DNA from: Treponematales bacterium
GTDB taxonomy: Bacteria; Spirochaetota; Spirochaetia; Treponematales; UBA12059
DNA: 34,079 nucleotides
Assembly: GCA_041741035.1 (NCBI GenBank)
Contig: JBGSKZ010000251.1
Coordinates: 1-34,079, forward strand
Reading direction: 5' to 3'
Below the pieces are notes generated by a model, which worked only from the letters and a program-made list of their open reading frames with translations, searched no databases and was not told the origin of the DNA. Both the position numbers and the translations under genes were made by a program. Of the stretch, positions 6,607-33,111 are shown in pieces (positions within the stretch are counted from its first letter, which is position 1; every line of letters starts with the position of its first letter).

Positions 6607-7308
6607 ATGATGGCAACTGCTGAAGTCCAAAAATCGATACTCCTGGTTGAGGACGACGCCATAGTTGCCATGTCAGAAAAAACGGCCCTTGAAGAATACG
6701 GATATGCCGTATGTACCGTGAATTCCGGTGAGAAGGCGATCCAGGCTTTCAAGGAAGCCAGCACTTTCGATCTGGTATTGATGGATATCAACCTGGGACA
6801 GGGTCTAGATGGAACGGAAACCGCGAAATTGATCCTGATGGATCAGGATATCCCTATAGTATTCCTGTCGAGCCACACAGGGCCTGAAACAGTTGAAAAA
6901 ACTGAGAAAATTACTTCTTACGGCTATGTAGTCAAAAACTCCTCCATTACTGTCCTGGATGCATCCATAAAGATGGTCTTCAAGCTATTCGGTGCAAAGA
7001 AGCAGATGGCCCAGGCGGCTGAGCAATTCAGGGCAATAGTCGAAAACACCTCTGATTGTATCGTCCGTTACAACCGGGAAGTACGACCTGTCTACGGTAA
7101 TCCATCGATACTTACAGCCTTGGGCATCTCCCTTGAACAGTTTGTGGGGAAGAGTCACCGCGAACTTGGCTTTCCCGAAAATTGGTGCCTGCTTTGGGAT
7201 ACTGCGATCGGTGGAGTGTTCCAGACCGGGATCCCAACAACGATAGAATCAGAGGTGGTGCTTGCCCGGGGAGAACTGATCAAGAAGCCTTTTGACCTGT
7301 ACATCTAG
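6607..7308 (+). CDS. response regulator receiver (REC) + PAS protein, ended by a TAG that is in frame with 7309..7542
   Basis: REC motifs: ILLVEDDAIV...DLVLMDINLGQGLDG...PIVFLSSH. PAS-like: FRAIVENTSDCIVRYNREVRPVYGNPSILTALGISLEQFVGKSH. TAG at 7306-7308. Confidence 0.75.
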   Translation: MMATAEVQKSILLVEDDAIVAMSEKTALEEYGYAVCTVNSGEKAIQAFKEASTFDLVLMDINLGQGLDGTETAKLILMDQDIPIVFLSSHTGPETVEKTEKITSYGYVVKNSSITVLDASIKMVFKLFGAKKQMAQAAEQFRAIVENTSDCIVRYNREVRPVYGNPSILTALGISLEQFVGKSHRELGFPENWCLLWDTAIGGVFQTGIPTTIESEVVLARGELIKKPFDLYI

Positions 7309-7542
7309 CCAGAGTATCGGGACAAATATTACCTGCACCGCAGGCAATTGTTCCTGACTGGCACCCTGCAGGACTGCGGATTGCACATGCGGCGGCAGGA
7401 CGGTAGCGCCTTTTTTGCAGTTCTGAGGGCAACCAGGGCAGAGGATGATGACGGCGAACCTGTATGCCTCGTGGTTGCGATGGAATTGGAGCACAATGAG
7501 CCAGGGAGAGCTGGATTCGGGGATGATAAGCCTGGAATTTAG
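7309..7542 (+). other. in-frame continuation of the REC-PAS ORF beyond the amber codon (PAS C-terminal-like segment)
   Basis: Same frame as 6607..7308 and open for 77 codons (PEYRDKYY...HMRRQDGSAFFAVLRATRAEDDDGEPVCLVVAMEL). It ends TAG 7540-7542, then GGA, then TGA 7546-7548, which overlaps ATG 7545. Confidence 0.5.
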
Positions 7543-7544
7543 GG

Positions 7545-8501
7545 ATGAAAAAGGAAAGGCGTACCATGAAAGAAGAAATCAAAGCCGATGAAGAGGCTAC
7601 GCCACCGGATGACAGCTTCCCGATAGTGGGCATCGGCGCATCGGCCGGGGGGCTGGCAGCTTTCGAAGCCTTCTTTTCAGGCCTGCCCGCCGAGCTTGAC
7701 CCCGGCATGGCCTTTATCCTGGTGCAACACCTGGCTCCGGATCACAAGAGCATCCTGACTGACCTTGTCAGGCGATATACACGGATGCAGGTCTTTGAGG
7801 TCGAAGACGGCATGAAGGTCCAGGTCAATTGTGCGTATATCATCCCGCCTGGCTATGACATGGCCTTCATCAACGGTTGCCTGCAATTGCTTGAGCCCAG
7901 CGCCCCCCATGGTCTGCGCCTGCCCATAGACTTCTTCTTTCGATCCCTGGCCCAGGACCAGCGGGAACGTTCTATCGGCATAGTGTTGTCCGGATCCGGC
8001 TCGGATGGCAGTCTCGGCGTGCGTTCGATCAAGGGAGAAGGTGGCATGGTGATGGCCCAGTGTCCGGAGAGTGCCGAGTATGACGGGATGCCCAGAAGTG
8101 CCATAGCCACCGGCATGGTTGATTTTGAATTGCCGCCCGCCGAGATGCCGGCTTCGTTGATGGCCTTCACTGCTCAAGCCTTCGGAAAAATATCAATGCA
8201 AAGCATGCCAACGAGTGAAAAATCGAATACCTTGAAGAAAATTTTCATCCTGCTTCGGGACGGGACTGGTCACGATTTTTCACAGTACAAGCCAAGCACC
8301 ATCCTGCGGCGGATCGAACGGCGCATGGCTGTACATCAGATCGCCAGTATACATGCATATGTCAGGTACCTGCAGCAGAACAAGCCTGAAATCGACGCGC
8401 TGTTCCGTGATCTGCTGATCGGTGTGACCAACTTCTTCCGCGATCCCGAAGCTTTTGCCGAGCTCGAGACGAAGATTATCCCGAAAATTTTCGAAGGTTA
8501 G
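7545..8501 (+). CDS. CheB-type methylesterase domain plus the N-terminal part of CheR; 5' portion of a CheB/CheR-PAS-histidine kinase gene split by an in-frame TAG
   Basis: CheB-like: FPIVGIGASAGGLAAFEAFF...ILVQHLAPDH...VLSGSGSDGSLG...EYDGMPRSAI. CheR N-domain: GHDFSQYKPSTILRRIERRM...NFFRDPEAF. TAG 8499-8501 is in the same frame as 8502..10817. Confidence 0.85.
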   Translation: MKKERRTMKEEIKADEEATPPDDSFPIVGIGASAGGLAAFEAFFSGLPAELDPGMAFILVQHLAPDHKSILTDLVRRYTRMQVFEVEDGMKVQVNCAYIIPPGYDMAFINGCLQLLEPSAPHGLRLPIDFFFRSLAQDQRERSIGIVLSGSGSDGSLGVRSIKGEGGMVMAQCPESAEYDGMPRSAIATGMVDFELPPAEMPASLMAFTAQAFGKISMQSMPTSEKSNTLKKIFILLRDGTGHDFSQYKPSTILRRIERRMAVHQIASIHAYVRYLQQNKPEIDALFRDLLIGVTNFFRDPEAFAELETKIIPKIFEG

Positions 8502-10817
8502 GAAGCAGGCTCAGTCATCCGTGTCTGGTCTTCCGGGTGTTCCACGGGGGAAGAAGCCTATTCCATCGCAATGCTCCTGGTAGAGGGCATGGAAAAAGCC
8601 AAACAAAAGTTTACCCTTCAGGTTTTTGCTACTGACATCGACTCCCAGGCCATAGCCGTTGCCAGGTCCGGGACCTATCCTGCGAGTATAGCGATGGACA
8701 TCACTGAGGAACGATTGTCCCGCTTTTTTACCCCGGAGCCTTCCATGCTGGATGAAAAACCCCTTTCGTACCGCATCAACAAGAGCATACGTGATTTACT
8801 GATCTTCTCGGAGCAGGACGTATTACGGGATCCTCCGTTCTCGAGGCTGGACCTCATCAGCTGCCGCAATCTCATGATATACCTGGACGGGGATTTGCAG
8901 AAGAAACTCATTCAGCGCTTCCACTATGCCTTGAATCCAGATGGCCTACTTTTTCTTGGTACCTCCGAAACAGTCGGTGAGTCTGCCGATCTCTTTGCAG
9001 TCCTGGACCGAAAGGCCAGGCTGTACCAACGCAAGAAGAATACTTCCAGTACCGGCAACTCGTTCCCCGGCGCTTATCTCGCAGCCCGCAAGACTCCGGA
9101 TGAGGTACGACCTGGTTATGTAGGAAAAAATATGAAAGCCGATAAAATTTCGTTGAAGGAACTTGCAGAACAGACGCTGTTGAAGAGGCTTGCGCCGTCA
9201 AGTGCCCTGGTGAACGGCCAGGGCGACATCTTCTACCTTCATGGCCGCACCGGCATGTACCTGGAGCCGCCTACTGGTGAAGTCGGTGCATACAATATTC
9301 TGAGCATGGCCCGGGAAGGCTTGACGAACGAGCTTGCTACGGCGCTTCGCAAGGCTGTCCATACCGGAGACATCGTCCGCTGTCCTGGGCTCCGGGTGAA
9401 GACAAATGCCCATTTTACACCAGTGGACCTGAGCATCTGCCCTGTCGGGAATGATTCCGGGGATTCCTCTTCCCCAGTCCTGTATCTGGTCCTGCTGCAG
9501 GAAGGGCAGGAGATCGAGACTGGGCATGATCAGGACCTTGCCTTGCAGACAGGCAGCCCGGAAGACAGCATCATCATTTCCCTGAAGCAGGAACTGAGGG
9601 CAAAGGAAGAATACCTGCAGAGTGCCAATGAAGAACTGGAGACTGCCAACGAGGAGCTTAAGTCATCCAATGAAGAAATGCAGTCAGTCAACGAGGAACT
9701 TCAATCCACCAATGAGGAGCTGGAAACCTCAAGGGAGGAATTGCAGTCGGTGAACGAGGAACTGGCAACGGTCAATACCGAACTTCAGAGCAAAGTGGCC
9801 GACCTGTCAATCATCAACAACGATATGAACAACCTCCTGTCTGGTACCGGCATAGCTACCGTCTTCGTCGACCATCAGATGTGTATCCTGCGCTATACAC
9901 CGACAGTAACCGTGATAATTAACCTGGTCAAAGGAGATGTCGGGCGTCCCATTCACCACTTTGTCAACAATCTGGTCGGTTACGAGACCATGATAGAAGA
10001 TATCCAGGCGGTGCTGGATACCCTGATCCCCAAAGAACTGGATGTGGTAACCATGCATGGAATCTGGTTCACCATGCGTATCCAGCCGTACCGCACGATA
10101 GATAACATCATCGAGGGTGCCGTGATCAACTTCGTGGATATCACCGATCGGAAACAGGCGGAAGACAAAGTGGGGCTCCTGCTTTCCGAGAAGGAACTCA
10201 TTCTCAGGGAAGTCAATCATCGCATCAAGAACAACATGTGCACCATGAAGGCCATGCTTGACCTGCAAGCCAGGGGCATGGCTGACAAGAAAGCCTCTGC
10301 CGCCCTGCTGGATGCCAGCAGCCGCATGCACAGCATGGAAATCCTGTATGACAAACTGTACCAGTCCAGCAACTTCTCGGAGCTATCGGTCAGGGAGTAC
10401 CTGTCCTTCCTGGTTGACGGGATTACGAGAAACTATTCAGGTGTACTGAATCTGACTGTTGTAAAACAATTTGACGATTTCATCCTTGATGCCGAGCGTT
10501 TACAGCCCCTGGGCATCATCATCAACGAACTGCTGACCAACGCGATGAAATACGCCTTTATAGGCAGGCCCAGTGGGGTGGTCAAGGTGGAAGCAGGTCT
10601 TGTTGGAGGCAGGGTTTCAGTGGCCGTCGCGGATGACGGCAAGGGCATGCCGGAATCCATCGATTTTGAAAATTCCACGGGCTTTGGCCTGATGCTTGTG
10701 CAAGGCTTGGCAATGCAGATAAAGGCAAGCACCCGGATAGAACGGGAGAAGGGAACCAGGATTAGCCTGGAGTTCGATCTGAACCACCCCGGGTTTACCG
10801 GAGACCGTATTATCTGA
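8502..10817 (+). CDS. CheR methyltransferase core, coiled coil, PAS and HisKA_2/HWE-type histidine kinase; 3' portion of the split CheB/CheR-PAS-HK gene
   Basis: Directly after the TAG the frame reads EAGSVIRVWSSGCSTGEEAYSIAMLL, the canonical CheR SAM-binding motif. The first ATG is at 8571 (the ORF-track start). Also present: an NEEL heptad coiled coil (about 9600-9800), a PAS segment, EVNHRIKNNM (HisKA_2 H-box) and an ATPase with DDGKGMP and GFGLMLV. Stop TGA 10815-10817. Confidence 0.85.
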   Translation, partial: EAGSVIRVWSSGCSTGEEAYSIAMLLVEGMEKAKQKFTLQVFATDIDSQAIAVARSGTYPASIAMDITEERLSRFFTPEPSMLDEKPLSYRINKSIRDLLIFSEQDVLRDPPFSRLDLISCRNLMIYLDGDLQKKLIQRFHYALNPDGLLFLGTSETVGESADLFAVLDRKARLYQRKKNTSSTGNSFPGAYLAARKTPDEVRPGYVGKNMKADKISLKELAEQTLLKRLAPSSALVNGQGDIFYLHGRTGMYLEPPTGEVGAYNILSMAREGLTNELATALRKAVHTGDIVRCPGLRVKTNAHFTPVDLSICPVGNDSGDSSSPVLYLVLLQEGQEIETGHDQDLALQTGSPEDSIIISLKQELRAKEEYLQSANEELETANEELKSSNEEMQSVNEELQSTNEELETSREELQSVNEELATVNTELQSKVADLSIINNDMNNLLSGTGIATVFVDHQMCILRYTPTVTVIINLVKGDVGRPIHHFVNNLVGYETMIEDIQAVLDTLIPKELDVVTMHGIWFTMRIQPYRTIDNIIEGAVINFVDITDRKQAEDKVGLLLSEKELILREVNHRIKNNMCTMKAMLDLQARGMADKKASAALLDASSRMHSMEILYDKLYQSSNFSELSVREYLSFLVDGITRNYSGVLNLTVVKQFDDFILDAERLQPLGIIINELLTNAMKYAFIGRPSGVVKVEAGLVGGRVSVAVADDGKGMPESIDFENSTGFGLMLVQGLAMQIKASTRIEREKGTRISLEFDLNHPGFTGDRII

Positions 10818-11257: not shown

Positions 11258-12793
11258 CTACGAAGGGAGGGCAGAGCCTTCAGCCGGCAGGGAGAAATAA
11301 AAGGTGGCGCCTGCGCCTTCTTCTCCTTCAGCCCAGACTGTACCGCCATGGCGCCTGACTATCCTTTCGACAATTGACAGTCCGATACCGGTGCCGGCAA
11401 AATCGCTGGTGGAGTGGAGGCGCTGGAAAACGCCGAACAGCTTGTGTGCGTAAGCAGGATTGAATCCCACTCCGTTGTCCTGCACTGAAAAAATAGTGAA
11501 ATTGGCTTCGCAGAGGCCCTTGATGCTTATTCTGCGTTCACTCCTGGGCTTGGTGAACTTTACTGCGTTCATGATCAGATTTGTCCAGACTTGATACAGC
11601 AGCAGGCTGTCTCCATGAACGGCAGGCAATTCGTCCATGGTTATTTCAAGCTCCCCATCTGCTTCCGTTTCCGTAATCTTCTCGACAATCGATTTTACCA
11701 GGGCCTGCATGTCCACGACCTGCTTCCGGAAATCCGAGCGTGTGTACCTGGAAAGGGAAAGCAGGGCAGATATCAGGCTGCCCATATGCTGCACTCCCGC
11801 TCGGATTTCATCCAGGAATCCAAGGCCCTTGTCGCCCAGGATGCCAGAAAAATCTTCTGCAAGCATGGCCGAGTATCCATCTATGGTGCGCAGTGGAGCT
11901 CGAAGGTCATGTGAAACCGAATACGAGAAAGATTCCAGTTCTTTATTCGCATATTCAAGCTCTCTTGTCCGATCGGCTACCCGCTGTTCCAATTCAGAAT
12001 TGAGACGAAGGATTTCGTCCTCCGCCTGTTTTCGCTGTGTTATATCCCTGACATTGCATTGCATGATGTCCCGGTGGTTTACCCGGTAAACAGTTCGGAC
12101 GACTTCGACGGCAAGGCTTTTGCCTGCCTTGCTTGTCACATACTTGATGACGGTGGTGTTGTATATCTGGAAGTCATGAACAGGTTGATCCGGCAGTATG
12201 CAGGCAATGGCATCCTGTGAAGCAAGCTCAAATGTTTTCATGCCAAGATACTCATCAGGCGAGGTTTCAAGGAGCTTTGCCAAGGCGGGATTAATATCGA
12301 TGATCCTGTTGCTCTGGAGATCAATGATCAGTATGCCGTCCTGGGCGGTCTCGAAAAGTCGGCGGTACTTTATTTCAGACGCACGGAGGTTGTCCTCCCG
12401 CATTTCAAGATGGACCTTGATCCTGGATCTGACTACATCCGGATCAATAGGTTTAGCGATGAAATCGACAGCTCCGACTACGAATCCTTCCTGTTCGGTC
12501 GTGGTCCTGTCGGTGGCGGACATGAATATAACCGGTATGGTCGATCCTTCTTCATCCTGTTTGATCCTGCGGCAGGTCTCGAAGCCATCCATGCCGGGCA
12601 TGGAGATATCCAGGAGGATCAGGTCTGGATGAGGAGCGGCTCTTGCGATCTTCAGGCCTTCTTCTCCGCTGGTTGCGATCTTTATCCGGTAATCGGCCTT
12701 GAGCACTTCCTTGAGTACCACGATGGAATCGGGAACATCATCCACGATGAGTACGGTTTTTTTTAGCTCCGGCAATCCAGGTGACTTTCTCAT
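11258..12793 (-). CDS. REC-PAS-histidine kinase (HisKA + HATPase_c)
   Basis: REC: VLIVDDVPD...DLILLDISMPGMDGFE. PAS segment present. H-box: SFSYSVSHDLRAPLRTI. ATPase: NLIMNAVKFT, DNGVGF, GTGIGLSIV. Its ATG overlaps the upstream TAA by 1 nt (TAATG). Stop TAG 11258-11260. Confidence 0.9.
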   Translation of the reverse strand: MRKSPGLPELKKTVLIVDDVPDSIVVLKEVLKADYRIKIATSGEEGLKIARAAPHPDLILLDISMPGMDGFETCRRIKQDEEGSTIPVIFMSATDRTTTEQEGFVVGAVDFIAKPIDPDVVRSRIKVHLEMREDNLRASEIKYRRLFETAQDGILIIDLQSNRIIDINPALAKLLETSPDEYLGMKTFELASQDAIACILPDQPVHDFQIYNTTVIKYVTSKAGKSLAVEVVRTVYRVNHRDIMQCNVRDITQRKQAEDEILRLNSELEQRVADRTRELEYANKELESFSYSVSHDLRAPLRTIDGYSAMLAEDFSGILGDKGLGFLDEIRAGVQHMGSLISALLSLSRYTRSDFRKQVVDMQALVKSIVEKITETEADGELEITMDELPAVHGDSLLLYQVWTNLIMNAVKFTKPRSERRISIKGLCEANFTIFSVQDNGVGFNPAYAHKLFGVFQRLHSTSDFAGTGIGLSIVERIVRRHGGTVWAEGEEGAGATFYFSLPAEGSALPS

Positions 12794-13902
12794 TAGGCTT
12801 GTACACCCTGGTCATTGAATGACTTGACTATCTCCACAAACTGCGGGCAGATATCAATGAAGGCAGATAGCACTTCCGGGTCGAAATGGCTGCCGGATCC
12901 CTTGCGTATGATTTCCACTGCTTCTTCATGGGGGAAGGCGTCTTTGTAGACGCGCTTGCTTATGAGGGCGTCGTACACATCGGGTATGGCCATGAGCAGG
13001 GCGGGAATGGGGATATCAGCTCCGGAGCAGCCGCAGGGATAGCCGCTTCCATCCCACTTTTCGTGGTGGCTTCCGGCAATCTCCCGGGCAAAGTGCAGGA
13101 AGGTAACCGGGCAATCAAGACGTTTCTCCGCTGCGGCTATGGCAGCCTGTCCAAGGGTGGTATGGGTCTTCATTATATCGAATTCTTCTGGAGTGAGCTT
13201 GCCAGGTTTCATGAGGATGCTGTCCGGAATGCCCACTTTTCCGATGTCGTGCAACGGGGCGGATTTATACAGGAGTTCGATGTTCTCGTCTGTAAGGAAG
13301 TTCCTGAATCTCCTCTTGTCCCTCAGGCGGAGGGCAAGTGCCCGTACATAGTGCTGGGTACGGCGGATATGATTCCCCGTCTCGTTGTCCCGGGTCTCCG
13401 CCAGGGATCCAAGGGCAACCATAGTGACATCCTGGATCTGCTGGACTTCCATGGTTCGCCGGGCGACTTCCTTCTCCAGGTATTCATTCTTGTCCTTCAG
13501 GAAATCTCTGAGGGTTTTCAGGTGAAGGTGGTTCCTGATTCTGGCCTGCACGATTGCCGGGCTGAGGGGCTTGGTGATGTAGTCTTCTGCCCCCAGATCA
13601 AGCCCCTGCTGTTCATCCCTTTCCTCGTTCTTGGTGGTCAGGAATATTATTGGTATATCCGCCGTCCGCGGATCCTGCTTGAGCCTTCGGCATACTTCAT
13701 AGCCATCCATGCCCGGCATCATTACATCAAGAAGGATGAGATCAAGCTCGTCTCCACGCTGTGCGACTTCAAGAGCCATCTGGCCAGAGACCGCCACCTT
13801 TATCCTGTACGTATTCCGGAGCACTTCCTTAAGCAGAATAATGTTGTCGACGGTATCGTCGACAATAAGTATGGTGGCCTGTCTGTCAGAGTGGTTTCCC
13901 AT
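12793..13902 (-). CDS. response regulator with HD-GYP domain (predicted c-di-GMP phosphodiesterase, RpfG-like)
   Basis: REC: [10 protein letters not shown]...[20 protein letters not shown]: [10 protein letters not shown] and [11 protein letters not shown]. Start chosen at ATG 13900-13902 (MGNHSDRQ), preceded by AAAGGA; the ORF track extends to 13995 inside the upstream gene. Confidence 0.9.
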
Positions 13903-16870
13903 TGGCAAATCCTTTTCCGGTTGTATCTGGAGGGTCAAGGGTACTGATGATCTTTCTGGCCGCGGCAAAATTATAGGCTCCCAGGGCGGTTGCAAGCAGG
14001 ATTACCATTTCGGCGGAAAGTGACTTCTTTAGCTGGCTCTGGATGGAAACGAAGTAATCAACCGCCTCGCTGTCATTCTCTTCTATGAGGAACTTCAGCC
14101 TGGCGTACATCTCGGCCCCTGAAAGTAGCTGCCCGCTTTCCTGTGGTGTTTCCGCATCCGGTTCCTTCACTTCATGCAACGTTGATGTGATGGTGCTTAT
14201 AAGTGCGGTCAGCAGGGATGAGAGCTGGGCAAGGTGGCGGTTGGTTACGGTGGTGTCTTCCTTTGCAGCGATCGAAGTTTCAAGCAACTCCGCTACCTGC
14301 TGTACTTTCGTTGCGCCGATAGTACCCGCCACCCCCTTGAGCGTGTGGGCAGCCCGCTCGGCACTGTTCCGGTCGCCACTTTCCAGATGTCGCCTGATGG
14401 TATCGACCGCGGCTTCCTGGCCATCGACAAAGCGGCGGAGCAGGTCTATATACAGTTGCCTGTTCCCATTCACATGGGTGCGGCCGACCCCGGTATCTAT
14501 GCCCGCCATTCCTGGAAGCCAGGTGGATACGGTACCCGACGTTTGCTTCTCTTCCGACTGCCCTCCGAAGGACGAACCGGATTGGTAGAACTTCTCTAGC
14601 GTCTTGAACATGGTCGGGGGGTCGATAGGCTTGCTGATGTATCCGTTCATGCCGGCAAGCCTGGTCTTCTCCCGATCGGTATCCAGGACGTGGGCGGTCA
14701 TGGCGATGACCGGTAGGTCGGCAAAGCGCTCCTGTGCCCGTATCCGCCGCAGGGTTTCATAGCCGTCCATGCCAGGCATCTGTATATCCAGGAGGACGAT
14801 GTCGTAATGCGCTTCCGTATCTTCCAGCATATGTAGGGCTATCAAGCCAGATTCTGCTACATCGACCTTCACTCCCTCGCTGAAGAGCAATTCTGAGGCC
14901 ACTTGCTGGTTCATCGCATTATCTTCCACCAGCAGGACCCTGGCTCCTTCGAGTGTCTGCCCGGAGCTGCTGTCAGGCTTGAGCGTACCAGCAGCGGAAC
15001 CTGGCGAGGGTTTGAAAACATTTATGATCGCATCGAACAGCATCGAGCAGGTTATAGGCTTGAGCAGGAAGGAAGTGGCCCCGGCGTTTCTTGCGGCCTT
15101 GCGTTCCGCTTCTCCTTCACTCCAGCCGCTGAGCATTATGACCACAGGAATATTCTTCAGTTCGCCGCCGTGAATGATGCACTTTGTGGTTTCTATGCCA
15201 TCGATCCCGGGCATTATCCAGTCCATGAGGACAAGGTTGTAAGGATCCTGAGCATCGGCCTGCTTGACCAGGTCAATCGCCTGCTCGCCTGAGTCTGCAA
15301 CCTCTACCCTGAAGTGCTGGGCCAGCAGGATCTGCTGGATGAAGTTCCTTGTTATAAAATTATCATCAACTACAAGGATTCTCAAACCCTTCATGGTGGA
15401 TGGGAAGACAAGCTTGTGCTGGCTGTTCTGCGCTTCAAAACCGAAGCTGGCAGAAAAACTGAAGGTACTGCCTGCTCCTGGTTCGCTCCGTACCTGGATC
15501 CGGCCACCCATCATCCCTACCAGTTTCTTTACAATGCTCAGGCCAAGACCCGTGCCGCCATATCTTCGGGACATGGAGTTGTCGGCCTGGGAAAAGGGCT
15601 GGAACAGTTTGCCGAGTTGTTCCTCTGTCATGCCTATACCGGTATCCCTCACGGTAAAGAGGACCCTGACCGCAGTAGTGCTTTTTTCAAGGACTTCAAG
15701 CCGCAGTTCGATCTCGCCTTTTTCGGTGAACTTAACGCCGTTGCTGACAAGGTTTACCAGGATTTGCTGAAGCCGGTATGGATCCCCTACAAGATTCGAA
15801 GGCAGATCCGGTGGTACGGTAAGTATGAACTCCAGACCCTTGGCGTTCGCATTGACCGTAGTGAATGACACTACCGCGTCCAGCACGATGTCCATGGTAA
15901 AGGCTACTTGTTCAATAGTCAGGCGTCCTGCTTCTATCTTTGAAAAATCAAGGATATCGTTGATGGTGGCAAGCAGGGTCTTGCCCGCGAGATGAATCTT
16001 GTCGATATAATCCTTTTGCCTGGGCTCAAGGCTGGTTTTCAGGGCAAGGCTTGAAAAGCCGATCACCGCGTTCAGGGGTGTCCTGATCTCGTGGCTCATG
16101 GCGGCCAGGAAATCGCTCTTTGCGTTGTTTGCCTGTTCGGCACTGAGCCTGGCGGCCTCAAGCTCCTCGTTTGCTGCCTGTAACTGGCTTGTACGTTCAA
16201 GGACACGGTTTTCGAGTTCGGCATTGAGGATCCGGATTTCCTCGGCCGCGTGCTTGCGTTCGGCCATCTCAAGCCGTAATGCTTCCGTCCTGGTTCTTAC
16301 TAGTTCCTCCAAATGATCGTTCAGGGTCTCCAGTTCGCCTTCAGCTTCCATGAGTTCCTTGTTCCTCATAACGGCAGCCTCATACGATGAAAGGAGCAGG
16401 CTGAACAACTGGGAAGCTTTTACGGTAATGGTGTGCTTGCCGGCGGCAATTGGTACTTCAAGGGTAAGTTCCGTCCCGGGGATTGCCAGGTTTTTGGTAA
16501 TTCCGCCCGATAGTATCCGGGGCAGCAGTTCAACCAGGTACTGTTCATTGAAGGGTTTCGTTACATAGAAATCCGCACCGCATTCAAGACCGGCCAGTAC
16601 ATCTTCAGCCTCACCGAGGGAGGTAAGGAGTATCACCGGCACATCCCTGGTCTTTTCCCCGTCCTTGATCTGCCGACATAGCTCATACCCGCTCATTTCC
16701 GGCATTATGATATCGCTGATGACAAGGGATGGCAGGTGTTCCTCAAGCCGTGCCAGGGCTTCGGAGGCTCTGCCCGCTGATATGATACGGTATGGCATTT
16801 GTTCCAGTACATGCCGCAACAGTTCGAGCTGGGTGGGGCTGTCATCAACGATGAGTATTTCATGGTCCAT
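13886..16870 (-). CDS. hybrid sensor histidine kinase: REC, coiled coil, HisKA, HATPase_c, REC, REC, Hpt
   Basis: REC: [10 protein letters not shown]...[12 protein letters not shown]-box: [17 protein letters not shown]. ATPase: DTGIGM and [10 protein letters not shown]. Two further receivers: [19 protein letters not shown] and [20 protein letters not shown]. Hpt: [13 protein letters not shown]. Start taken at ATG 16868-16870 ([10 protein letters not shown]) after GGGAGG; the longer track ORF overlaps cheB. Confidence 0.9.
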
Positions 16871-17936
16871 GGAAGGCCTCCCGTGATTTTCCGGCAAGGG
16901 ATGAAAGCAGAGTGGCAATGCACTCCGGAGAAAGGATATACCTAGCTGCTTGGATTTTGTTTGCTTCTCCAGGCATACCATAGACCACCGAGCTTTTCTC
17001 ATCCTGGGCTATGGTGAGTGCGCCTGCTTCCTTCATGGCTTTCAGTTCGTCTGCGCCATCCCGCCCCATGCCGGTCAGCAGGACACCTGCTGCCTGGGAG
17101 CCAGACTCGATCAGAACGGATCGGAAGAGGTGCCCCACTGAAGGGCGTATCCCGTTATAGACAGCTGAATGTTCACATAATTGTATACGCATTCCGCCCT
17201 GGACTCCCAGATGGTAGCCGTCAGGGGCGACATAGGCACGGCCAGGTGAAATGGCTTGGCCTTGTGTGGCGATACGTACCGGAAAGCCTGATGCTCCGGA
17301 CAACCATTCTGCAAATCCCTGGACGAAGCCCTCCGCTATATGCTGGGCTATGAGTATGGGCAGGGGAAAATCATGCGCCAAACCGGAGAGCAGATTCTTA
17401 AGGGCAAGGGGACCGCCGGTGGAGGCGCCTATGGCAACGATCCTGATTCCGGAACTGGCTTCATACTCTTTCAGGGGCATTGTATGTCCTGGAATGCATC
17501 CCGGATCGCGTCGGGGGATCCTCCGTACGACTTTTATTTCAGACATCATCTTCACGGTGTGCAGCAGTTCTCTTGCCAGCGATCCGGATGATCCATCATG
17601 GAAACCAGGAGGACGCAGAACCACCGCGAGAGCCCCGGCTTCCAGGGCCTGGAAGGTGAAGGCAAGCTCTTCCATCACCGTGTTACCGCTGACTACCACA
17701 ATCGGGACGGGTGAAGTTTCCATTATACGGCGGGTTGCTTCCAGCCCGTCCATGACCGGCATGTTTATATCCATGGTCACGACCGATGGACGAAGCAGTC
17801 TGGCAGCCCGTACGGCTTCTTCTCCGTTATGGGCCAGTCCCGCGATCTCAAAATCCGGGTCGGATCTGAAGATATGCGCGAGGAATTCCCGGATGACCGG
17901 TGAATCTTCAACGATGAGGACCCTGATGGGCTTCAT
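16860..17936 (-). CDS. cheB: chemotaxis response regulator protein-glutamate methylesterase CheB (REC + methylesterase)
   Basis: REC: [12 protein letters not shown]...[12 protein letters not shown]. Esterase: [40 protein letters not shown]. Its ATG overlaps the cheA stop as ATGA. Confidence 0.9.
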
Positions 17937-18862
17937 AGCAACCTGCCGATGGTTTCAAGGAGGTTGCTCTGGTCAAAACTGCTTTTGACTATATAGGCAT
18001 CGGCACCAACCTCGATGCCCCGTTCAATATCATCCCGAGATTCCAGCGCCGTGACAAGGATGACCGGGATACCGGCCAGCCGCGGGTCGCCGCGGACCTT
18101 TGCACACAACTCGAATCCGCTCATGCGGGGCATGTCGACATCCGAGACAAGAAGGTCGAAATCTTCCGCCAGTGCCCTGGAATATGCTTCAACGCCATCG
18201 ACTGCGGTAGCTACCTGGTATCCGGCGGTCTGTAGCATGGTCCTCAGCAGGGAACGGGCGGTGATCGAGTCATCGGCCACCAGAATGTTCCTGACCTTCC
18301 CCTCTGGCTGTCCGGATCCCTGTTCCAGGGGTTTTAGTGGAGCAGTTCCTCTGCTTGCCTCGATCCTCACGGCCGACTGCATCAGCTCCGAGGTGTTGAG
18401 GATGGGTACTATCCTTCCGTCTTCGAGAAAGGCTGTTCCCGAGATGTTGCGTACCCGCTTCAGGAGGGGGCCCAGATTCTTCTGGATGATTTCCTGTTCG
18501 TCGATGAGTTCGTCTATCTGGAAGGCGACGCTGTGGTCGGCGGAGGACATGACCAGAACCAGCATGAATCCGTCGGCCTGTCCGGAGCCCTGCATGCCCT
18601 GCCCTCCCGGTCTGGCCAGCCTGGGCAGACCCAGGGCATCGGCCAGGGGCAGGAGTGCCATATCCTGTCCCTGCAGGCTGACCATCATGGAGGTTCCGAG
18701 GCTTCTGACCTCATGTGATGCTATCCTGGCTACGCGAGCCACGTTCCGGGTTGGAAGGATGAACTCCCTGTCCCCTGTACGGACCAGCATGCCCCGAAGG
18801 GTGGATACAGTCATTGGGACCTGGATGATGAAGGTGGTCCCGATCTGGGGCTGCGACTCCAC
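17933..18862 (-). CDS. cheA: CheA C-terminal portion (end of ATPase, CheW-like domain, C-terminal REC), separated from the N-terminal portion by a frameshift
   Basis: Upstream of the track start this frame reads GNITVESQPQIGTTFIIQVPMTVSTL (end of the CheA ATPase). A CheW-like regulatory domain follows, then REC (ILVADDSITARS...LLVSDVDMPRMSGFE). WspE-like architecture. Confidence 0.85.
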   Translation of the reverse strand: MESQPQIGTTFIIQVPMTVSTLRGMLVRTGDREFILPTRNVARVARIASHEVRSLGTSMMVSLQGQDMALLPLADALGLPRLARPGGQGMQGSGQADGFMLVLVMSSADHSVAFQIDELIDEQEIIQKNLGPLLKRVRNISGTAFLEDGRIVPILNTSELMQSAVRIEASRGTAPLKPLEQGSGQPEGKVRNILVADDSITARSLLRTMLQTAGYQVATAVDGVEAYSRALAEDFDLLVSDVDMPRMSGFELCAKVRGDPRLAGIPVILVTALESRDDIERGIEVGADAYIVKSSFDQSNLLETIGRLL

Positions 18863-18864
18863 TG

Positions 18865-20184
18865 TTATGTTGCCCCGAGGGCGGTGATTTTCTCATGCAC
18901 GATCGGAAGACCCAGGCCTCTGCCTGAAATATCGGTGAGCATCGTGCTGGTCGAGACGCCGGACTGGAAAATGAGCTTGACCGCTTCCCCGGATTCCAGG
19001 GCATCAATGGTTTCTTTGGGGAAGATCCCTGCTTTGATGGCAGCGGATCGGACCTGGGCCTGGTCAATGCCTTCGCCATCGTCTGATACTCGTAGTTCCA
19101 TCCGTTGACTGTCAATCGCGGTAAAGGCGGCGGTAATGGTTCCCCTGGGCGGCTTGCCCTGTTTGCAGCGCTTGTCGGCAGCAAGCATGCCATGATCCAC
19201 ACAATTGCGTATCAGATGGATCAGGGGATCCTTCAATCCATCCAGCACCCGCTTGTCACACGCAAGATCGTCACCGTGTATGACCAGATCCACTGCCTTG
19301 CCCTGGTCGCGCGCAAGGTCCCGAACCAGTACCGGGAACAGCTGCATCAGGCTTGCTGCCGGCAGCATCAGGGCTCCTCTCATGTTTTCAAGATGTTCAT
19401 CCACCAACCGGTCCAGCTGGTACCGGTTCTGCGACGAGGCCTGGGTCATTGTAGTCATGCGGTCCTGGAAGCCATCCAGAATGGACTCACATCGGTCATG
19501 CCACCCTTCATCACGCATGTTCATGGCAGAGGCCCCGCTGGCCTTCCGTTGCGAGGCTTCATGTTTCCAGGTCTGCAGGTCCTGACATATGGCATTCAGT
19601 TCCATCGCCTGGTGACGGGCTGTCATCTTGAGTGCCACCAGCTCCTCAGCCTGGTGCATGAGCTCATCCAGCCGTTCGAGGGGCAGGCGCACGGTGCTTT
19701 TTTCAAGCAGCTTCATTTCCGCGACAGGAGGAAGTACGACAGTGTCATTGTCATTTGCTTCTGGGGAGGCTTCGCCGGTAATTGCCCTGTCCAGATCCTT
19801 GACAACCTCCTTTGCCTGTTCCTGGTCCGGGATCGTACCCTCCAGGTCGGGAGTCGAAATTATCCTGGCAATGAGGTCGATGCTCCTGTGCAGTACGTCG
19901 AAACGGGCGGGTGTAGGCACGATTGAACCTAGTTTCAGGGCGGAGAAGACAGCCTCCAGGGGCCGGCAGATCGATTCGACCAGCTTGAGGCTGACTGAAC
20001 GGGCTGCTCCTTTCAGGCTGTGGGTTTCCCTGAATACCTGCTCGGTCAGTCTGGTCCAGGTTGCGGGATCCGGTGACTGTTCCATGCCAATCAGGCAATC
20101 CGATATGGACTGGATATGCTCGTCCGCCTCGGCCCGGAAGGTGGTTCTGAGGTGTTTCAGGAATTCACGATCACTGGTGCCCAT
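18865..20184 (-). CDS. cheA: CheA N-terminal portion (Hpt, dimerisation, ATPase up to the G2 box), ending prematurely through a frameshift
   Basis: Hpt: ETHSLKGAARSV. N-box: HLIRNCVDHG. G1: SDDGEGID. G2: GRGLGLPIVHEKITALG, then AT*. The protein continues in the other frame (see 17933..18862). Confidence 0.85.
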   Translation of the reverse strand: MGTSDREFLKHLRTTFRAEADEHIQSISDCLIGMEQSPDPATWTRLTEQVFRETHSLKGAARSVSLKLVESICRPLEAVFSALKLGSIVPTPARFDVLHRSIDLIARIISTPDLEGTIPDQEQAKEVVKDLDRAITGEASPEANDNDTVVLPPVAEMKLLEKSTVRLPLERLDELMHQAEELVALKMTARHQAMELNAICQDLQTWKHEASQRKASGASAMNMRDEGWHDRCESILDGFQDRMTTMTQASSQNRYQLDRLVDEHLENMRGALMLPAASLMQLFPVLVRDLARDQGKAVDLVIHGDDLACDKRVLDGLKDPLIHLIRNCVDHGMLAADKRCKQGKPPRGTITAAFTAIDSQRMELRVSDDGEGIDQAQVRSAAIKAGIFPKETIDALESGEAVKLIFQSGVSTSTMLTDISGRGLGLPIVHEKITALGAT

Positions 20185-20203: not shown

Positions 20204-20812
20204 CTATCCAAGTTCATCGTTTACGACCAACGCTTCGTCTCCGAGGATTTTTGCCGCGTCGAGGATGAAGCCTCCGGAATGAATCCTGGCTATGTACCCC
20301 GCAGCTGATCCGGCCAACGCCTGTAAAGGGGGCCGGGTATCCTGGTATGGAATGCTCCGTGTTCCCAGGATACGATCCGCCAGAATCCCGAGTTCCATGA
20401 CCCCATCGCTCAGGATGAGTATCCTGTTCAATTCACCAAGCCCCCTTGACGGTACTTTGAGCAGTTCCCTCAGATCAACCAGTGCCAGTACATGCCCGCG
20501 TATATTGGTGATGCCGGCAATGAAGGATGGAATCCCGGGCAGCGATGTCAGGTTCTTCAGTGGATGAACCTCCCGGACAAATCGGCACTCCATGGCGTAG
20601 ACACTGGCAGCCAGACTGAATTCGATGATGTTCATGCATTGCCCCTCGATAGGGCCTGAATCCAGGGGCTTGGCGAGTTCCCGTGCCCTTTCTTGAAGGA
20701 TACGGTCCGGTTCGGCTGGAGAAGCTCCTGGTCCATGATCCAGAGCAGTCTTCAGTGCTTCGATCCGGGCCCGTATCGCGTCCCAGTCTGTGTCCCCCAA
20801 GGTTCCACTCAT
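20204..20812 (-). CDS. cheW: CheW-like coupling protein with an N-terminal extension
   Basis: 202 aa. CheW fold motifs: IIEFSLAASVYAMECRFVREV...PGIPSFIAGITNIRGHVLALVDLRELL. Its ATG overlaps the mcp stop as ATGA. Stop TAG 20204-20206, 19 nt before the cheA ATG. Confidence 0.85.
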   Translation of the reverse strand: MSGTLGDTDWDAIRARIEALKTALDHGPGASPAEPDRILQERARELAKPLDSGPIEGQCMNIIEFSLAASVYAMECRFVREVHPLKNLTSLPGIPSFIAGITNIRGHVLALVDLRELLKVPSRGLGELNRILILSDGVMELGILADRILGTRSIPYQDTRPPLQALAGSAAGYIARIHSGGFILDAAKILGDEALVVNDELG

Positions 20813-22863
20813 GTTTTGTACTGGTCGACCAGGCTTTTAAGCTTCAGCCCAAGCTCGTTCAGGTTCTGGGCCACTTGTTCAGCCTGGTGCATGCTGGTAA
20901 CGGTCTGGGTTCCGGCCTGGCTGATATTGGTCATGGCAATTCCTATCTGGTCCATGCCGATGACCTGCTGGCGGCTTGAGGCCACTATCTGTATGGCTGT
21001 CTGGGTGGCTTCGGCGCTGCTTTCCGTCAGGATCCCTATCGCCTCGCCGGCCTTGGAGGATTGGTCGACCCCCGCGTCCACGGCCTTTGTCCCTTCTTCG
21101 GCGGCTGTCACCGCAGCGCTGGTGGCTTTCTGTACATCCCCCAGGATGCTGCGGATCTGTATGGTGGCCTGTTTTGACTGCTCGGAGAGATTCCTGATTT
21201 CCTGGGCTATAACGGTAAACCCTTTTCCCTGGTCACCCGCCCGGGCTGCCTCTATGGCCGTGTTTACAGCCAGCAGGTTTGACTGGTCGGCAAGGTCGGT
21301 TACGGTGGCAATGATGCCGCCGATGGACTGACTCTGTTCACTCAGCCGGACAATCGTATGGGCGATGGTCTCCATCTGGTCCCGGATGTGGAGCATGGCA
21401 TCCATGGTATCGTTGACCGCTTTCTGGCCGGATTCCGAGGTGTCGTTCACATGCCTTGCGTTGTCAGAGACATTCTGAGCCTTCTCGGCTGACAACTGGG
21501 CAGCCTGCCGTACCTGTTCAACCGTAGCGGTGGTCTGATTTATAGCACTCGCGGTTTCCGTGGTTCCTGCGACGATCTGGGTTGTGGAGGCGAGTATCTC
21601 GCTCCCTGCGGAGGTAAGGACGTTCACACCGTCGCTGATGGACCGCAAGTGGCCCTGGAGCCTGTCCACCATGGCCGAGAAGGCTTTCCCAAGCTGGTCC
21701 TGCTCCGAAAGGGGGCTGACCTGTACAGCCAGATCTCCTCCGGATATCCTCTCAGCGACCTGGGCCATCCCCCTGAGCCAGGTCAGCATGGTGGCGAAGG
21801 CCTTGGCCAGGCTGCCTATCTCGTCGTGCCGCGAGGTGTATTCCACGTCAATGCAAAGGTTGCCTTGCGCAATGGCATTGGCCGCGCCGACTACCTTGTT
21901 GAGCGGATTGACGATGCTCCGGGAAAAGAAGAACAGTATTGTGGCCGCTGCCAGCAGAGCCACCAATCCAAGGAGGACAATCTGGTTCCGGATCATGGTA
22001 GCCGATGAATACAGGTCGTCCTCTTCTATGGTAACCGCGACACTCCAGCCAGTGAGGGGAACCGGTGCCATTCCGGCCAGCTTTGCCACCCCGTTGCGTG
22101 TGTACTCGACTATGCCGTGTCCGCCTCGCTTAACCATCTGCGCATAGGGTTCCATCCCTGGAATTTCCGCAATATTCTCGCTAAGGATGTTTTCCTTGAC
22201 GGGATGGGCAATAACCAGGCCGGAACCTTCCGTAATGGTCGCATAGCCGGTCTTCCCTACCTTGGCCTTGTCGATCAAGTCCGTGAGGTACTTTATTTCC
22301 ATTCCTATTGCCACAGCGCCGATTATCGTCTTTCCGTCGGGCGCGTAGACAGGGCTTCCTGCGGTGCTGATGATTCTGCCGGTGAATTTGGATATTACAA
22401 TGGAACCGACGCTTGCCTGGCCTTTCAAGGCGGATATCATGTAGTCACGGGTGGACAGGTCACCGCCAAGATTGGCAGTGTTGGTTGAGGCGAAGATGAT
22501 CCCGTCCCGGCCGCAGACATTGATGCTTGAACAGTTTTCGCCAATGTTATCCTTGATCCTCGTGAATTCTTCTTCCGCTTCAGAATATGTAGCCAGCTTG
22601 ACACCGCGTTGTAATCGTTCCTGCGCGGCCGCCTGGATTGTCCGCAAACCTGCCATATTCCTGACCATGATGAGTTGGTCCTGCATGCCTACTTCAAGCG
22701 TGTTTGCCAGACCCTCCGCCATGATGGAAAGATCGTTCTGTGCCATGGTGCTGATGCCGCGCGTGGATTCCACGACACTGACAAATCCGATGATCATGAT
22801 CGGAATCACCAGCAACGCCAATCCGCCGATCAGGAATTTTGCGCCTAGTCCTGGATGTTTCAT
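20809..22863 (-). CDS. methyl-accepting chemotaxis protein with a large periplasmic (double-Cache-like) sensor, HAMP and MA signalling domain
   Basis: Two TM segments (FLIGGLALLVIPIMIIGFV; VLLGLVALLAAATILFFF) flank about 270 aa. HAMP follows. Conserved hairpin tip: LADQSNLLAVNTAIEAARAGDQGKGFTVIAQEIRNLSEQS. Confidence 0.9.
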   Translation of the reverse strand: MKHPGLGAKFLIGGLALLVIPIMIIGFVSVVESTRGISTMAQNDLSIMAEGLANTLEVGMQDQLIMVRNMAGLRTIQAAAQERLQRGVKLATYSEAEEEFTRIKDNIGENCSSINVCGRDGIIFASTNTANLGGDLSTRDYMISALKGQASVGSIVISKFTGRIISTAGSPVYAPDGKTIIGAVAIGMEIKYLTDLIDKAKVGKTGYATITEGSGLVIAHPVKENILSENIAEIPGMEPYAQMVKRGGHGIVEYTRNGVAKLAGMAPVPLTGWSVAVTIEEDDLYSSATMIRNQIVLLGLVALLAAATILFFFSRSIVNPLNKVVGAANAIAQGNLCIDVEYTSRHDEIGSLAKAFATMLTWLRGMAQVAERISGGDLAVQVSPLSEQDQLGKAFSAMVDRLQGHLRSISDGVNVLTSAGSEILASTTQIVAGTTETASAINQTTATVEQVRQAAQLSAEKAQNVSDNARHVNDTSESGQKAVNDTMDAMLHIRDQMETIAHTIVRLSEQSQSIGGIIATVTDLADQSNLLAVNTAIEAARAGDQGKGFTVIAQEIRNLSEQSKQATIQIRSILGDVQKATSAAVTAAEEGTKAVDAGVDQSSKAGEAIGILTESSAEATQTAIQIVASSRQQVIGMDQIGIAMTNISQAGTQTVTSMHQAEQVAQNLNELGLKLKSLVDQYKT

Positions 22864-24359
22864 GGTACCTCCATATAGTACCGTTGCGTGGAGCCCAACG
22901 GTGCATGCTTCCTCATGGTAGCGGATAGTAGTTCCCTGAACCGCCCCACGGTCAGGCCTCCGGCTTCGGGAAGGATTTCGTCATCCGGCCATTGGGCAAG
23001 CAAGGTCAGTGTGTTTCTGAGCCAGCGGATGCCCGTTGGCCTGTCGCCGGTGCGCAGTGCCAGGTTGCCAAGCATGAAACTGGCCACCAGGGACTGCGGA
23101 TCCAGATACAGAGCCTTCTTCAGCGATGCCGTGGCCTCCGCATCCCGGTTGAGTTCCTGGAGTATCGCCGCCTCCAGGAAGTGGAAGCGGGCGTTCACCC
23201 TGTCATTACTGATCAAGGTCCGGCACAGTGCCAGGGCCTCATCAAGATGCCCTGCATCGGCAAGTTCCTGTACGCTGAGCTCCTCCAATGGTGTGGACTC
23301 CGGCAAAGGTCGGGCGGGCATGCCCACCGGTCCGGTAGTACTGGCTGGTATTGCGGCGGTGACCGCTTTAGTTTTGGGCTTTTCACGGTCCCGGGAGTTC
23401 TTTCCGGCGCTCCTGTGATGCTCCGTGGCAGGGTGCTTCAACGGGGTCTTCGCCAGAGGCTTGGGGTGTACGGCTGCAGGTGCCATGTGAGGCGGTGTCG
23501 CTGTACCAGGCATACCTTTACGGTATGCTGTAGCCTCGGGGAAGGAGACTACCTCAAAGCCTCTGAACAAGACCTGGGAACATTCACAGGCAGCCGGTAT
23601 CATCCATCCCCCATCGACAAGAGACAATCCCATTCTTTCCACAATCCAGCGCGCGCGGTCGGGGGTGAAATACATGAGTACATTCCTGCAGAATATGATA
23701 TCCATGGCAGTCGTATCATTGAGGGTGGATGGATACATGCCGTCGGCAAGGTTCAGATACGAGAACATGACCATGGAACGCACCGCCGGAATGACCGTTC
23801 GTTTCTTCCTCCCGGCATCCAGGAAGTAGTCTGCCGTCAGCCAATCCGGGGCATTCCTGAACGACCACTCCCCATAGGTTCCGAGTTCTGCCTTCCTGAG
23901 CGTTGAGGGGTTTATGTCCGTAGCCAGGATGGTGATGTTCCAGTTGTCGACGGTGGGCAGGCCCCGCCGGAGGGCTATGGCGATGGAATACGCCTCGTCC
24001 CCGGACGAACAGCCGGCACACCAGAGCCGGAGTATCCTGTTGCCTTGGGCTTCCTTTCCCTGGATCAAACCAGGCAGGATTGATCCTTCCAGGGCATCGA
24101 ACACCCGGGGTTCACGCCAGAAATAGGTCTCGCTGGTGGTCAGCTGGCCTGCAAGGATCTCCTTTCGCTCTTCGGTGACAGGGGATGACATGAGTTCCTG
24201 GCTGAACGCAGCCGCATCAGGGTATCCCAGCAGTTTCGCCGCTACCCCGACCCCTGCTTCAAGCTCGCCCCAACGGGGCGGGGGGAAATGCAGTGCCAGC
24301 TGTGCCTCGATGAATTCACTGAGCCGTGCAAGCTGGTGTCCCGGGAGTATATGCTTCAT
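22860..24359 (-). CDS. cheR: CheR-type protein-glutamate O-methyltransferase with a C-terminal TPR-like extension
   Basis: Motifs: ETYFWREPRVF and LRLWCAGCSSGDEAYSIAIAL. The C-terminal 130 aa are helical-repeat-like (LDEALALCRTLISNDRVNARFHFLEAAILQEL...). ATGA overlaps occur at both ends. Confidence 0.9.
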   Translation of the reverse strand: MKHILPGHQLARLSEFIEAQLALHFPPPRWGELEAGVGVAAKLLGYPDAAAFSQELMSSPVTEERKEILAGQLTTSETYFWREPRVFDALEGSILPGLIQGKEAQGNRILRLWCAGCSSGDEAYSIAIALRRGLPTVDNWNITILATDINPSTLRKAELGTYGEWSFRNAPDWLTADYFLDAGRKKRTVIPAVRSMVMFSYLNLADGMYPSTLNDTTAMDIIFCRNVLMYFTPDRARWIVERMGLSLVDGGWMIPAACECSQVLFRGFEVVSFPEATAYRKGMPGTATPPHMAPAAVHPKPLAKTPLKHPATEHHRSAGKNSRDREKPKTKAVTAAIPASTTGPVGMPARPLPESTPLEELSVQELADAGHLDEALALCRTLISNDRVNARFHFLEAAILQELNRDAEATASLKKALYLDPQSLVASFMLGNLALRTGDRPTGIRWLRNTLTLLAQWPDDEILPEAGGLTVGRFRELLSATMRKHAPLGSTQRYYMEVP

Positions 24360-24817
24360 GCCGTTTCTGCCGCCATAGCGGCGTCCAGTTGGTCTTCTTC
24401 ATCCAGGGAGAGCAGCGCATCCAGGTCGTAGATGAGGGCCATGCCATCCTCAAGCCGCGCCACCCCCCTCAGGTGATCGGTAAAAGACAAGGATTCCGCC
24501 GCGTCCGTGATTAGTTCGCCAGGAATCATCCGGATGCCCTCCACATCATCAACAACCAGCACAAGCGTGCGCCTAGGAGTCCTCGCAACCAGGAATTTCG
24601 TTGAGCAAGCCAGGGGCTGTGGCGGCAGCTTGAAGAGGGAGCGCATATCCATAACTGGCAGGACCTTTCCATGCATGTTGATGATGCCAAGGACTTTCCG
24701 GGGAGCATCGGGTAAGGGAGAAATCTCCACAGCCCTGGTCACGCACTCAACGACAGGCAAAGGAAGGATGTACCGGGATTGGTCAAGAGAAAACTGGATG
24801 CCCGGTCCTGGCTACAT
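24356..24817 (-). CDS. cheW: CheW-like coupling protein; the best start (ATG 24815-24817 behind GGAGGAGG) is immediately followed by an in-frame TAG
   Basis: Reading from ATG: M-TAG-PGPGIQFSLDQSRYILPLPVVECVTRAVEISPLPDAPRKVLGIINMHGKVLPVMDMRSLF..., a full CheW N-terminus. The ORF track starts at TTG 24760, which would delete the first beta-strand. SD (CCTCCTCC on +) lies at 24825-24832. Confidence 0.75.
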
Positions 24818-25029
24818 GGGATATCCTCCTCCGCTCACCTGCCATGATGGTCCAGCCACTATTTGGTGAAAGGACTGCTTCCCTCACGTTTTTCATTTTC
24901 TGTCTTGCTGATCAGTCCATATATAAGCATATGCCGTATCCCGGCAAAAGCAAGGGCAGCCATTGCAAGGGGGGAGGGGTGCGTCGAACCAGGGAGAAAT
25001 CCATCAGCCCACCCGGTGAAGCGCCTGGA

Positions 25030-25783
25030 TGTACCCTGCTGGAAGCAGTGCTTGAAACCGCATTGGAGCATAGTGGGGACAGCATCATCTTTGCCCTGGA
25101 TCGTGGGTGCCGCTATATTGACTTCAATAGCATGCACAGACAGGAGATGTGCAGGGTCTGGCATGTCGGGATACGGCTTGGCGACTCGATACTGGATCAG
25201 CTGACTATACCCGGGTTGCGGGAAGAAGCACAGCAGACTTCCGAGCGGGGTCAGGCCCGGTGCTCGAGGTGCTCGTCATAGTCACGGGCATGACCGAAGC
25301 GTCCAGGTAGAGGAAGGCCGACGAGAAGCTGAACCATGACCTGGACGCCTTCGCCAGGGCAATCTCGAATGAGCTGAAGGTGCACATCTGAGGAATCGAC
25401 GAGGTCCAGTTGGATCTGGCCGAGTTACCATATTGCAACGGCGATCCGACACTGTTGCGCAAGGTATGGGAGGGCGCTTGCTGGACAACGCGCTCAAGTT
25501 CAGCATAGGCCAGGTACGGCGGGTCATTTCGATATTCGCGGAGACCACCGGTAGCGGGATCAGGTACTGCATCAAGGATACAGGCATAGGCTTCAATGAA
25601 GCGTACAACGATTAACTGTTCACAGCCTTCGAACACTTGCATTTATATGGAACATACGGAGGATGCGATGCGGGGCTGGCCATGGTGAAATGTATCATTG
25701 TACTGCACTAAGGCAGTGTCGGCGCTGCCAGTGAAGAAGGGAAAGGCGCATTGTTCTGGCTTGCACTACCGAAGATTGGGTGA
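25030..25783 (+). pseudogene. decayed PAS-histidine kinase gene
   Basis: PAS-like LLEAVLETALEHSGDSIIFALDRGCRYIDFNSMH lies in frame 1. An H-box remnant LDAFARAISNELKVHI-TGA(25389-25391) and GDPTLLRKVWE lie in frame 0. LLDNALKFS...IKDTGIGFNEAYND-TAA(25613-25615)-LFTAFEHLH...GLAMVKCIIVLH-TAA(25709-25711)-GSVGAASEEGKGALFWLALP lies in frame 2. Confidence 0.8.
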
Positions 25784-26695: not shown

Positions 26696-26780
26696 GGGCT
26701 GGCTCCTCAGCTAAGATTACGCCAGTATAACTCAGGTCGTAGAACAGCGCGAGAAAAACCAATATCTACCAAGGTTATGT

Positions 26781-26919: not shown

Positions 26920-26928
26920 TCCGGATAT

Positions 26929-26968: not shown

Positions 26969-26972
26969 ATGA

Positions 26973-27111: not shown

Positions 27112-27118
27112 TCTGGAT

Positions 27119-27161: not shown

Positions 27162-27163
27162 CG

Positions 27164-33104: not shown

Positions 33105-33111
33105 TGCGGAT

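Follow-up and report, generated by a model that had tools for sequence, protein, structure and literature searches.

The first gene of a chemotaxis-like operon in a Treponematales bacterium begins with a strong Shine-Dalgarno (SD) sequence, an ATG and a TAG as its second codon, while the codons beyond the TAG resemble those of a CheW protein. This raises the question of whether the gene has been inactivated, whether its stop codon is read as sense, whether the start and stop codons together form a regulatory element, or whether the TAG is an artefact of the assembly. Here, we used the whole stretch of 34,079 nucleotides that carries the locus (the window), the genome bin from which it comes, and homologous loci from genomes and metagenomes to address these alternatives.

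The start region of the first cheW gene

The minus strand reads ...gcGGAGGAGGatatcccATGTAGccaggaccgggcatccagttttctcttgac... across the start region, which contains the following features.

24825..24832, minus strand: Shine-Dalgarno sequence GGAGGAGG, 7 nt 5' of the ATG (spacer ATATCCC)
24815..24817, minus strand: native ATG of cheW, with the conserved Phe of the first strand 8 codons further on
24812..24814, minus strand: in-frame TAG at codon 2, an amber nonsense codon where homologues have an ordinary codon, mostly for S, T or G
24758..24760, minus strand: TTG, the first in-frame canonical start past the TAG, without an SD and at the cost of 19 N-terminal codons
24356..24811, minus strand: remaining, otherwise intact cheW (151 codons plus TGA at 24358-24356)

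The arrangement described in an earlier, sequence-only reading (strong SD, 7-nt spacer, ATG, and TAG as codon 2) was borne out, except that the SD begins at 24832 and not at 24833. GGAGG belongs to the strongest class of SD and precedes 17% of the confident genes in this genome. Translated from the ATG, cheW gives M, a stop, and then PGPGIQFSLDQSRYILPLPVVECV..., which stays open to the TGA at 24358-24356; the in-frame codons following the TAG are CCA GGA CCG GGC ATC CAG TTT TCT CTT GAC CAA TCC CGG TAC ATC CTT CCT. Reading the sequence also confirmed that the frame from the TAG to the TTG at 24760 contains no ATG, GTG or TTG, and that starting at this TTG removes 19 codons.

The same reading had assigned the codons after the TAG to the first strands of CheW, and the Pfam and PDB matches, as well as an alignment of 24 homologues (see below), agree. 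In the read-through product, residues 6-138 match the Pfam CheW profile (PF01584) over profile positions 2-136 of 138 (1.7e-25), and CheW chains in the PDB match at 1.5e-10 to 1.4e-7, with alignments that run from residue 5 after the TAG, which corresponds to their first strand. The remainder of cheW is a full-length CheW-like domain that lacks an uninterrupted frame from a start codon.

Comparison with homologous cheW genes

Database searches returned cheW homologues with up to 57% identity; the best is from a Rectinemataceae MAG (57%), and the closest homologues are scattered across phyla. In the alignment of 24 homologues, 23 begin with M or V (the V being a GTG start translated literally), followed within about 13 residues at most by the conserved strand. 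The start codon is upstream of the first strand in all of the 83 full-length homologous loci collected from genomes and metagenomes, usually by 9-14 codons; the most frequent distances to the conserved Phe are 9 and 14 codons (8 here). None of the 83 has a stop codon after its start, all being open from there. Because every one of these loci has its start before the first strand, ATG 24817 is the native start of cheW and the codons past the TAG encode its normal N-terminal strands. The sequence-only reading had named orthologues that begin at the equivalent of TTG 24760 as evidence that would speak against it, and none truly begins there. One homologue, P0003, was considered as such a case and rejected, as its short N-terminus is the choice of the gene caller: its DNA has the same open GTG upstream as its full-length sister, which the caller passed over to avoid a GTGA overlap.

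An exact-protein lookup of the neighbouring CheR and a metagenome scan found no near-identical copy of the cheW block in other samples, the scan revealing only relatives with no more than 45% identity. In the closest homologues a REC gene precedes cheW; a remnant of it was sought here and was not found.

These comparisons also bear on the idea that ATG-TAG is a regulatory, start-stop minimal ORF, with a shortened CheW produced by re-initiation at TTG 24760 or at ATG 24676. An SD, an ATG and an adjacent stop are indeed the anatomy of functional start-stops in E. coli, as detected by Ribo-RET (bioRxiv 10.1101/520783), and the existing database gene call for the locus (P0001) is a 98-aa product from an internal ATG. 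Against this, the conserved first strands are encoded in frame directly past the TAG, which makes the ATG-TAG the gene's own ancestral start and no independent element, and none of the 83 homologous loci has a stop there. Neither TTG 24760 nor the next internal ATG is preceded by an SD in the sequence read, and a product lacking the first 19 residues would, judging from a structure alignment, be missing strands one and two of the CheW fold. Furthermore, the genome contains 11 sites of the form GGAGG-N4-9-ATG-stop, and a long coding ORF continues in frame from the cheW site alone. A start-stop function is thus very improbable.

Further lesions in the chemotaxis-like block

The operon runs on the minus strand in the order cheW, cheR-TPR, dCache-MCP, cheW, cheA-REC, cheB, hybrid kinase, REC-HD-GYP and REC-PAS-kinase. 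Its genes past the first cheW, and the other genes of the block in which lesions were found, are as follows.

22860..24359, minus strand: cheR with a TPR tail, its ATG overlapping the cheW TGA as ATGA
20809..22863, minus strand: dCache-HAMP-MCP receptor, from domain search
20204..20812, minus strand: second cheW, terminating at a genuine TAG (20206-20204)
18865..20184, minus strand: 5' part of cheA, from Hpt to HATPase_c, with HATPase_c cut at profile position 88 of 111 and a stop at TAA 18867
18862..18880, minus strand: 1-nt frameshift of cheA in or next to a GGGG run, within the ATPase domain, from three-frame translation
17933..18862, minus strand: 3' part of cheA in the other frame, with the CheW-like P5 domain and REC
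16860..17936, minus strand: cheB, with REC and methylesterase domains, from domain search
11258..17002, minus strand: downstream output genes (hybrid kinase, REC-HD-GYP, REC-PAS-kinase), the last with a genuine TAG stop at 11260
7545..10817, plus strand: CheB/CheR-PAS-kinase fusion, with an in-frame TAG (8499-8501) at a variable loop position of the CheR domain
6607..7548, plus strand: REC-PAS gene, with an in-frame TAG (7306-7308); the PAS match that spans the TAG is weak
25401..25780, plus strand: decayed histidine-kinase ATPase remnant, just upstream of cheW and divergent from the che operon, with TAA 25613, TAA 25709 and a frameshift

The ATGA overlap of cheR with cheW indicates translational coupling between the two. 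In cheA, the frameshift lies between ...ITALG and GNITVESQPQIGTTF..., the latter belonging to the C-terminal end of the ATPase domain: frame 0 finishes with ...GRGLGLPIVHEKITALGAT and a stop at TAA 18867, and the domain resumes as GNITVESQPQIGTTFIIQVP... in the other frame. The kinase remnant was detected by tblastn with the kinase encoded at 11258-12793. These further, independent lesions are those expected of pseudogenes in a decaying island. Decay of the operon had been named in the sequence-only reading as an argument against its own interpretation, and decay is what the frameshifted cheA and the kinase remnant, with its two TAA codons and a frameshift, exhibit.

The stop in cheW had further been described as the third interruption in the block and, again, a TAG. 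The TAGs at 8499 and 7306 are real, so the count stands; the special status implied for TAG does not, as TAG is an ordinary stop genome-wide (see below) and lesions other than TAG occur in and beside the operon. With the codon usage of the block, a random nonsense substitution yields TAG with P = 0.46-0.54 each time, and three TAGs in three with P = 0.10-0.16. Once the TAA stops of the remnant are counted, the local nonsense spectrum is unremarkable.

The downstream context TAG-CCA-G is common to two of the three in-frame TAGs (7306-7312 and 24808-24814), a post-hoc observation for which no mechanism was found. Mutation at a Dcm-type hotspot (CCAGG to CTAGG) was considered and rejected, since the contexts of the TAGs do not fit.

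TAG is an ordinary stop codon in this genome

Several lines of evidence define TAG as an ordinary terminator in this genome. In a gene set from a simple codon-usage gene finder, TAG ends 1161 of 3519 genes (33%), with TAA ending 1186 and TGA 1172, and two genes of the cheW operon itself terminate at TAG (20206 and 11260). Release factor RF1 is intact (532 bits, over the cut-off, with its PST and GGQ motifs), and RF2 is present with SPF. The in-frame extensions beyond genes that end at TAG match those beyond TAA: the median length is 20 codons for both, extensions of at least 60 codons make up 22.5% for TAG and 21.3% for TAA, and the mean coding scores are −0.052 and −0.060, respectively. A stop with an in-frame TGA behind it, the TGA overlapping the next start, was found in 3.1% of cases for TAG and 2.6% for TAA; being equally common after TAA, this pattern is regarded as chance. 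Pairs of called genes in the same frame, split by one stop, number 103 for TAA, 89 for TAG and 47 for TGA. Genome-wide reassignment of TAG is rejected by the intact RF1, the use of TAG as a stop, the extensions and the split-pair counts.

Decoding of TAG as pyrrolysine is likewise rejected. The best match to the PylS model TIGR02367 reaches 23.5 bits against a cut-off of 178, and with a bin completeness of 94% the absence of PylS is probable but short of certain; a scan of the genome revealed no tRNA whose anticodon loop is normal and carries CUA, and the only tRNA candidate has canonical D and T arms and a loop of 6 nt, unlike tRNA-Pyl. Sequences that span stop codons were also compared by blastp with all ORFs, which gave 549 spanned stops (250 TAG, 159 TAA and 140 TGA). 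These raw counts were dropped: with a 25-residue flank on the match, 510 remained, and all except 16 were artefacts of non-coding or antisense frames (the frame being taken as the best of six).

A prophage-borne tRNA and the possibility of readthrough

The candidate tRNA lies in a prophage on contig C745 (18227-18297; L023:5228-5298) and has perfect acceptor, D and T arms. Its anticodon loop has 6 nt, UACUAA, which includes CUA, and ARAGORN labels it '?(Ser|Pyl)'. With Infernal (48.7 bits), position 32 is deleted, which places U33 and gives the anticodon ACU, not CUA. Its nearest relatives in the genome are tRNA-Asp GUC (0.76 identity) and tRNA-Arg UCG (0.75), UCU and CCU (both 0.73), and its anticodon arm resembles those of tRNA-Arg UCU and CCU. 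The tRNA is absent from 40 relatives, and a search of viral contigs for its anticodon arm gave no match. The prophage encodes a CI-like repressor, an antirepressor and a replisome-organiser; on the contig (49 kb), TAG ends 3 of 36 called genes, as compared with about 33% genome-wide, and its large structural genes showed no TAG inside their frames.

Useful readthrough of TAG could be imagined through near-cognate tRNAs acting at a weak UAG-C context, through suppression by the C745 tRNA, or as the legacy of a donor that read TAG as sense; in the first two cases, the three amber-interrupted signalling genes would be conditionally expressed. In favour are the identity of the in-gene nonsense codons (TAG in all three, with CCA-G after two), the textbook arms of the C745 tRNA and the CUA within its loop, and the scarcity of TAG among the stops of the C745 genes. 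The weakest context for termination in E. coli is reportedly a C directly after the stop codon, as Poole, Brown and Tate are said to have found in 1995. Against readthrough are the ACU anticodon assigned by Infernal and the kinship with tRNA-Asp and tRNA-Arg, the confinement of the tRNA to this bin when set against the 40 relatives and the viral contigs, and the lack of internal TAGs in the large prophage genes. RF1 is intact and a genome-wide signal of TAG readthrough is absent, the operon itself terminates two genes at TAG, and the frameshift in cheA is beyond repair by any suppressor. The predicted RNA structure beyond the cheW TAG is not stimulatory (z = +0.38), the values after the three in-frame TAGs being inconsistent between sites (z = +0.38, −0.63 and −2.0), and the residues that homologues align to the TAGs are variable. 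Taken jointly, these forms of readthrough are quite improbable. The more specific proposal that the C745 tRNA weakly suppresses amber codons, such that lysogeny or induction conditionally restores the three interrupted signalling genes, cheW among them, is extremely doubtful; were it true, it would constitute a phage-controlled on-switch for a chemosensory pathway.

The source assembly and the accessory island

The bin comprises 3.95 Mb in 844 contigs with 60.8% GC, 94% completeness and 5.5% contamination. In the gene set from the simple gene finder, stop codons in this 61% GC genome are used almost exactly one third each; TAA and TAG have higher shares than about 61% GC usually gives. Positions 1-141 of the window recur identically at the ends of contigs C42 and C154, an overlap from a k=141 assembly graph; 141-nt overlaps at contig ends are typical of a short-read graph of this k. 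Contig C42 also carries copies of window 658-1439 and 4325-5977 at 82-89% identity, and these partial copies point to a related strain or a paralogous island in the bin.

Such features would be compatible with a TAG that arose as an error of the consensus or the assembly, or that represents a minority or strain-specific allele picked up by the assembler, in an organism whose cheW is intact: the bin is fragmented and contaminated, its contigs end in 141-nt overlaps, and related strains or paralogues are present. However, substitutions are seldom introduced by short-read assemblers, every one of four independent lesions within 18 kb would have to be an error, and no second copy or other haplotype of the che block is present among the contigs of the bin. 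An artefact or minority allele is thus unlikely.

The GC content of 1-kb windows between roughly 6 and 33 kb is 0.47-0.60, almost all below the genome value of 0.608. Three genomes of the same genus contain no orthologue of the first cheW. The gene on the left flank (4334-5977) has no homologue in same-genus genomes, and the gene on the right flank (33392-34060), on the far side of tRNA-Asp and tRNA-Pro, has a 77% identical counterpart in one congener; nearly the whole window up to the tRNA-Pro/tRNA-Asp pair therefore looks like variable island DNA. The genome contains nine further CheW-domain regions elsewhere, which renders the che system of the window redundant. Repeats of about 200 nt (26775-27208 and 32964-33201) are related to the tRNA-Pro region at 78-91% identity and flank a segment of about 6 kb with Fic and S41 peptidase genes; this arrangement is consistent with serial integrations at tRNA-Pro.

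Discussion

Together, the results make a recent amber knockout of cheW, now a pseudogene within a decaying, horizontally acquired accessory island, the likely explanation of the locus. A single-base change would have created the TAG at codon 2; TAG is one step from TCG, GAG, CAG, AAG, TGG, TTG, TAC and TAT. The strong SD would still load ribosomes onto ATG 24817, and RF1 would release fMet at the adjacent UAG, so that no functional CheW would be expected. As the cheR start overlaps the cheW stop, loss of coupling, probably with Rho-dependent polarity, may lower expression of the rest of the operon. The lesion is presumably recent, because the remainder of the gene still scores as a normal CheW. 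Relaxed selection on the island, which lies by tRNA-Pro and tRNA-Asp, would account for the three amber codons, the cheA frameshift and the neighbouring gene remnants. What stands against the knockout is that every in-gene nonsense codon in the otherwise intact genes of the block is a TAG (3/3), that two of these three share TAG-CCA-G and the loop of a prophage tRNA in the bin holds CUA, and that the bin is fragmented and slightly contaminated (844 contigs, 5.5%).

The locus resembles nonsense pseudogenes of decaying islands in that a single premature stop interrupts an otherwise intact gene with a frameshift and remnants nearby, in a block of atypical GC beside tRNA genes that is absent from congeners. 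It differs from the usual island pseudogene in that the stop of cheW lies at codon 2 behind a very strong SD, mimicking a start-stop element, and in that the in-gene nonsense codons of the block are all TAG, by chance (P about 0.1-0.16). Start-stop minimal ORFs have been documented in E. coli (Meydan et al., bioRxiv 10.1101/520783), where they occur in leaders or, out of frame, within genes. The cheW site shares with them an SD, a start codon and a stop directly after it; unlike them, its ATG-TAG is the ancestral start of a gene, in frame with a conserved domain, and is not kept in homologues.

In-frame TAGs in an accessory element, together with an odd phage-borne tRNA in the same bin, also recall the amber-recoded phages and mobile elements with suppressor tRNAs (Borges et al., bioRxiv 10.1101/2021.08.26.457843). 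Unlike in those elements, genes of the operon still end at TAG in the presence of an intact RF1, the TAGs amount to three in about 6000 codons and coexist with lesions that are not TAG, and the C745 tRNA lacks a normal CUA anticodon loop. In gene content, the operon is akin to the Wsp-type (alternative cellular function) operons, such as Pseudomonas wspABCDEFR, with CheW, CheR-TPR, an MCP, a second CheW, a CheA-REC hybrid and CheB. Unlike Wsp, it places cheW first instead of the receptor, both cheW and cheA are broken in the copy in the window, and its output consists of REC-HD-GYP and extra kinases, with no REC-GGDEF (WspR) among the downstream genes.

If the TAG were decoded, the locus would be a rare example in which suppression of a stop at the second codon governs a bacterial signalling operon. 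On the preferred reading, a knockout in a decaying accessory island, the finding is routine. The gene is to be annotated as a pseudogene of cheW that natively starts at 24817, and not as a protein of 98 or 134 aa; and several interruptions that are all TAG call for caution, because they are to be expected by chance in a genome of G/C-ending codons.
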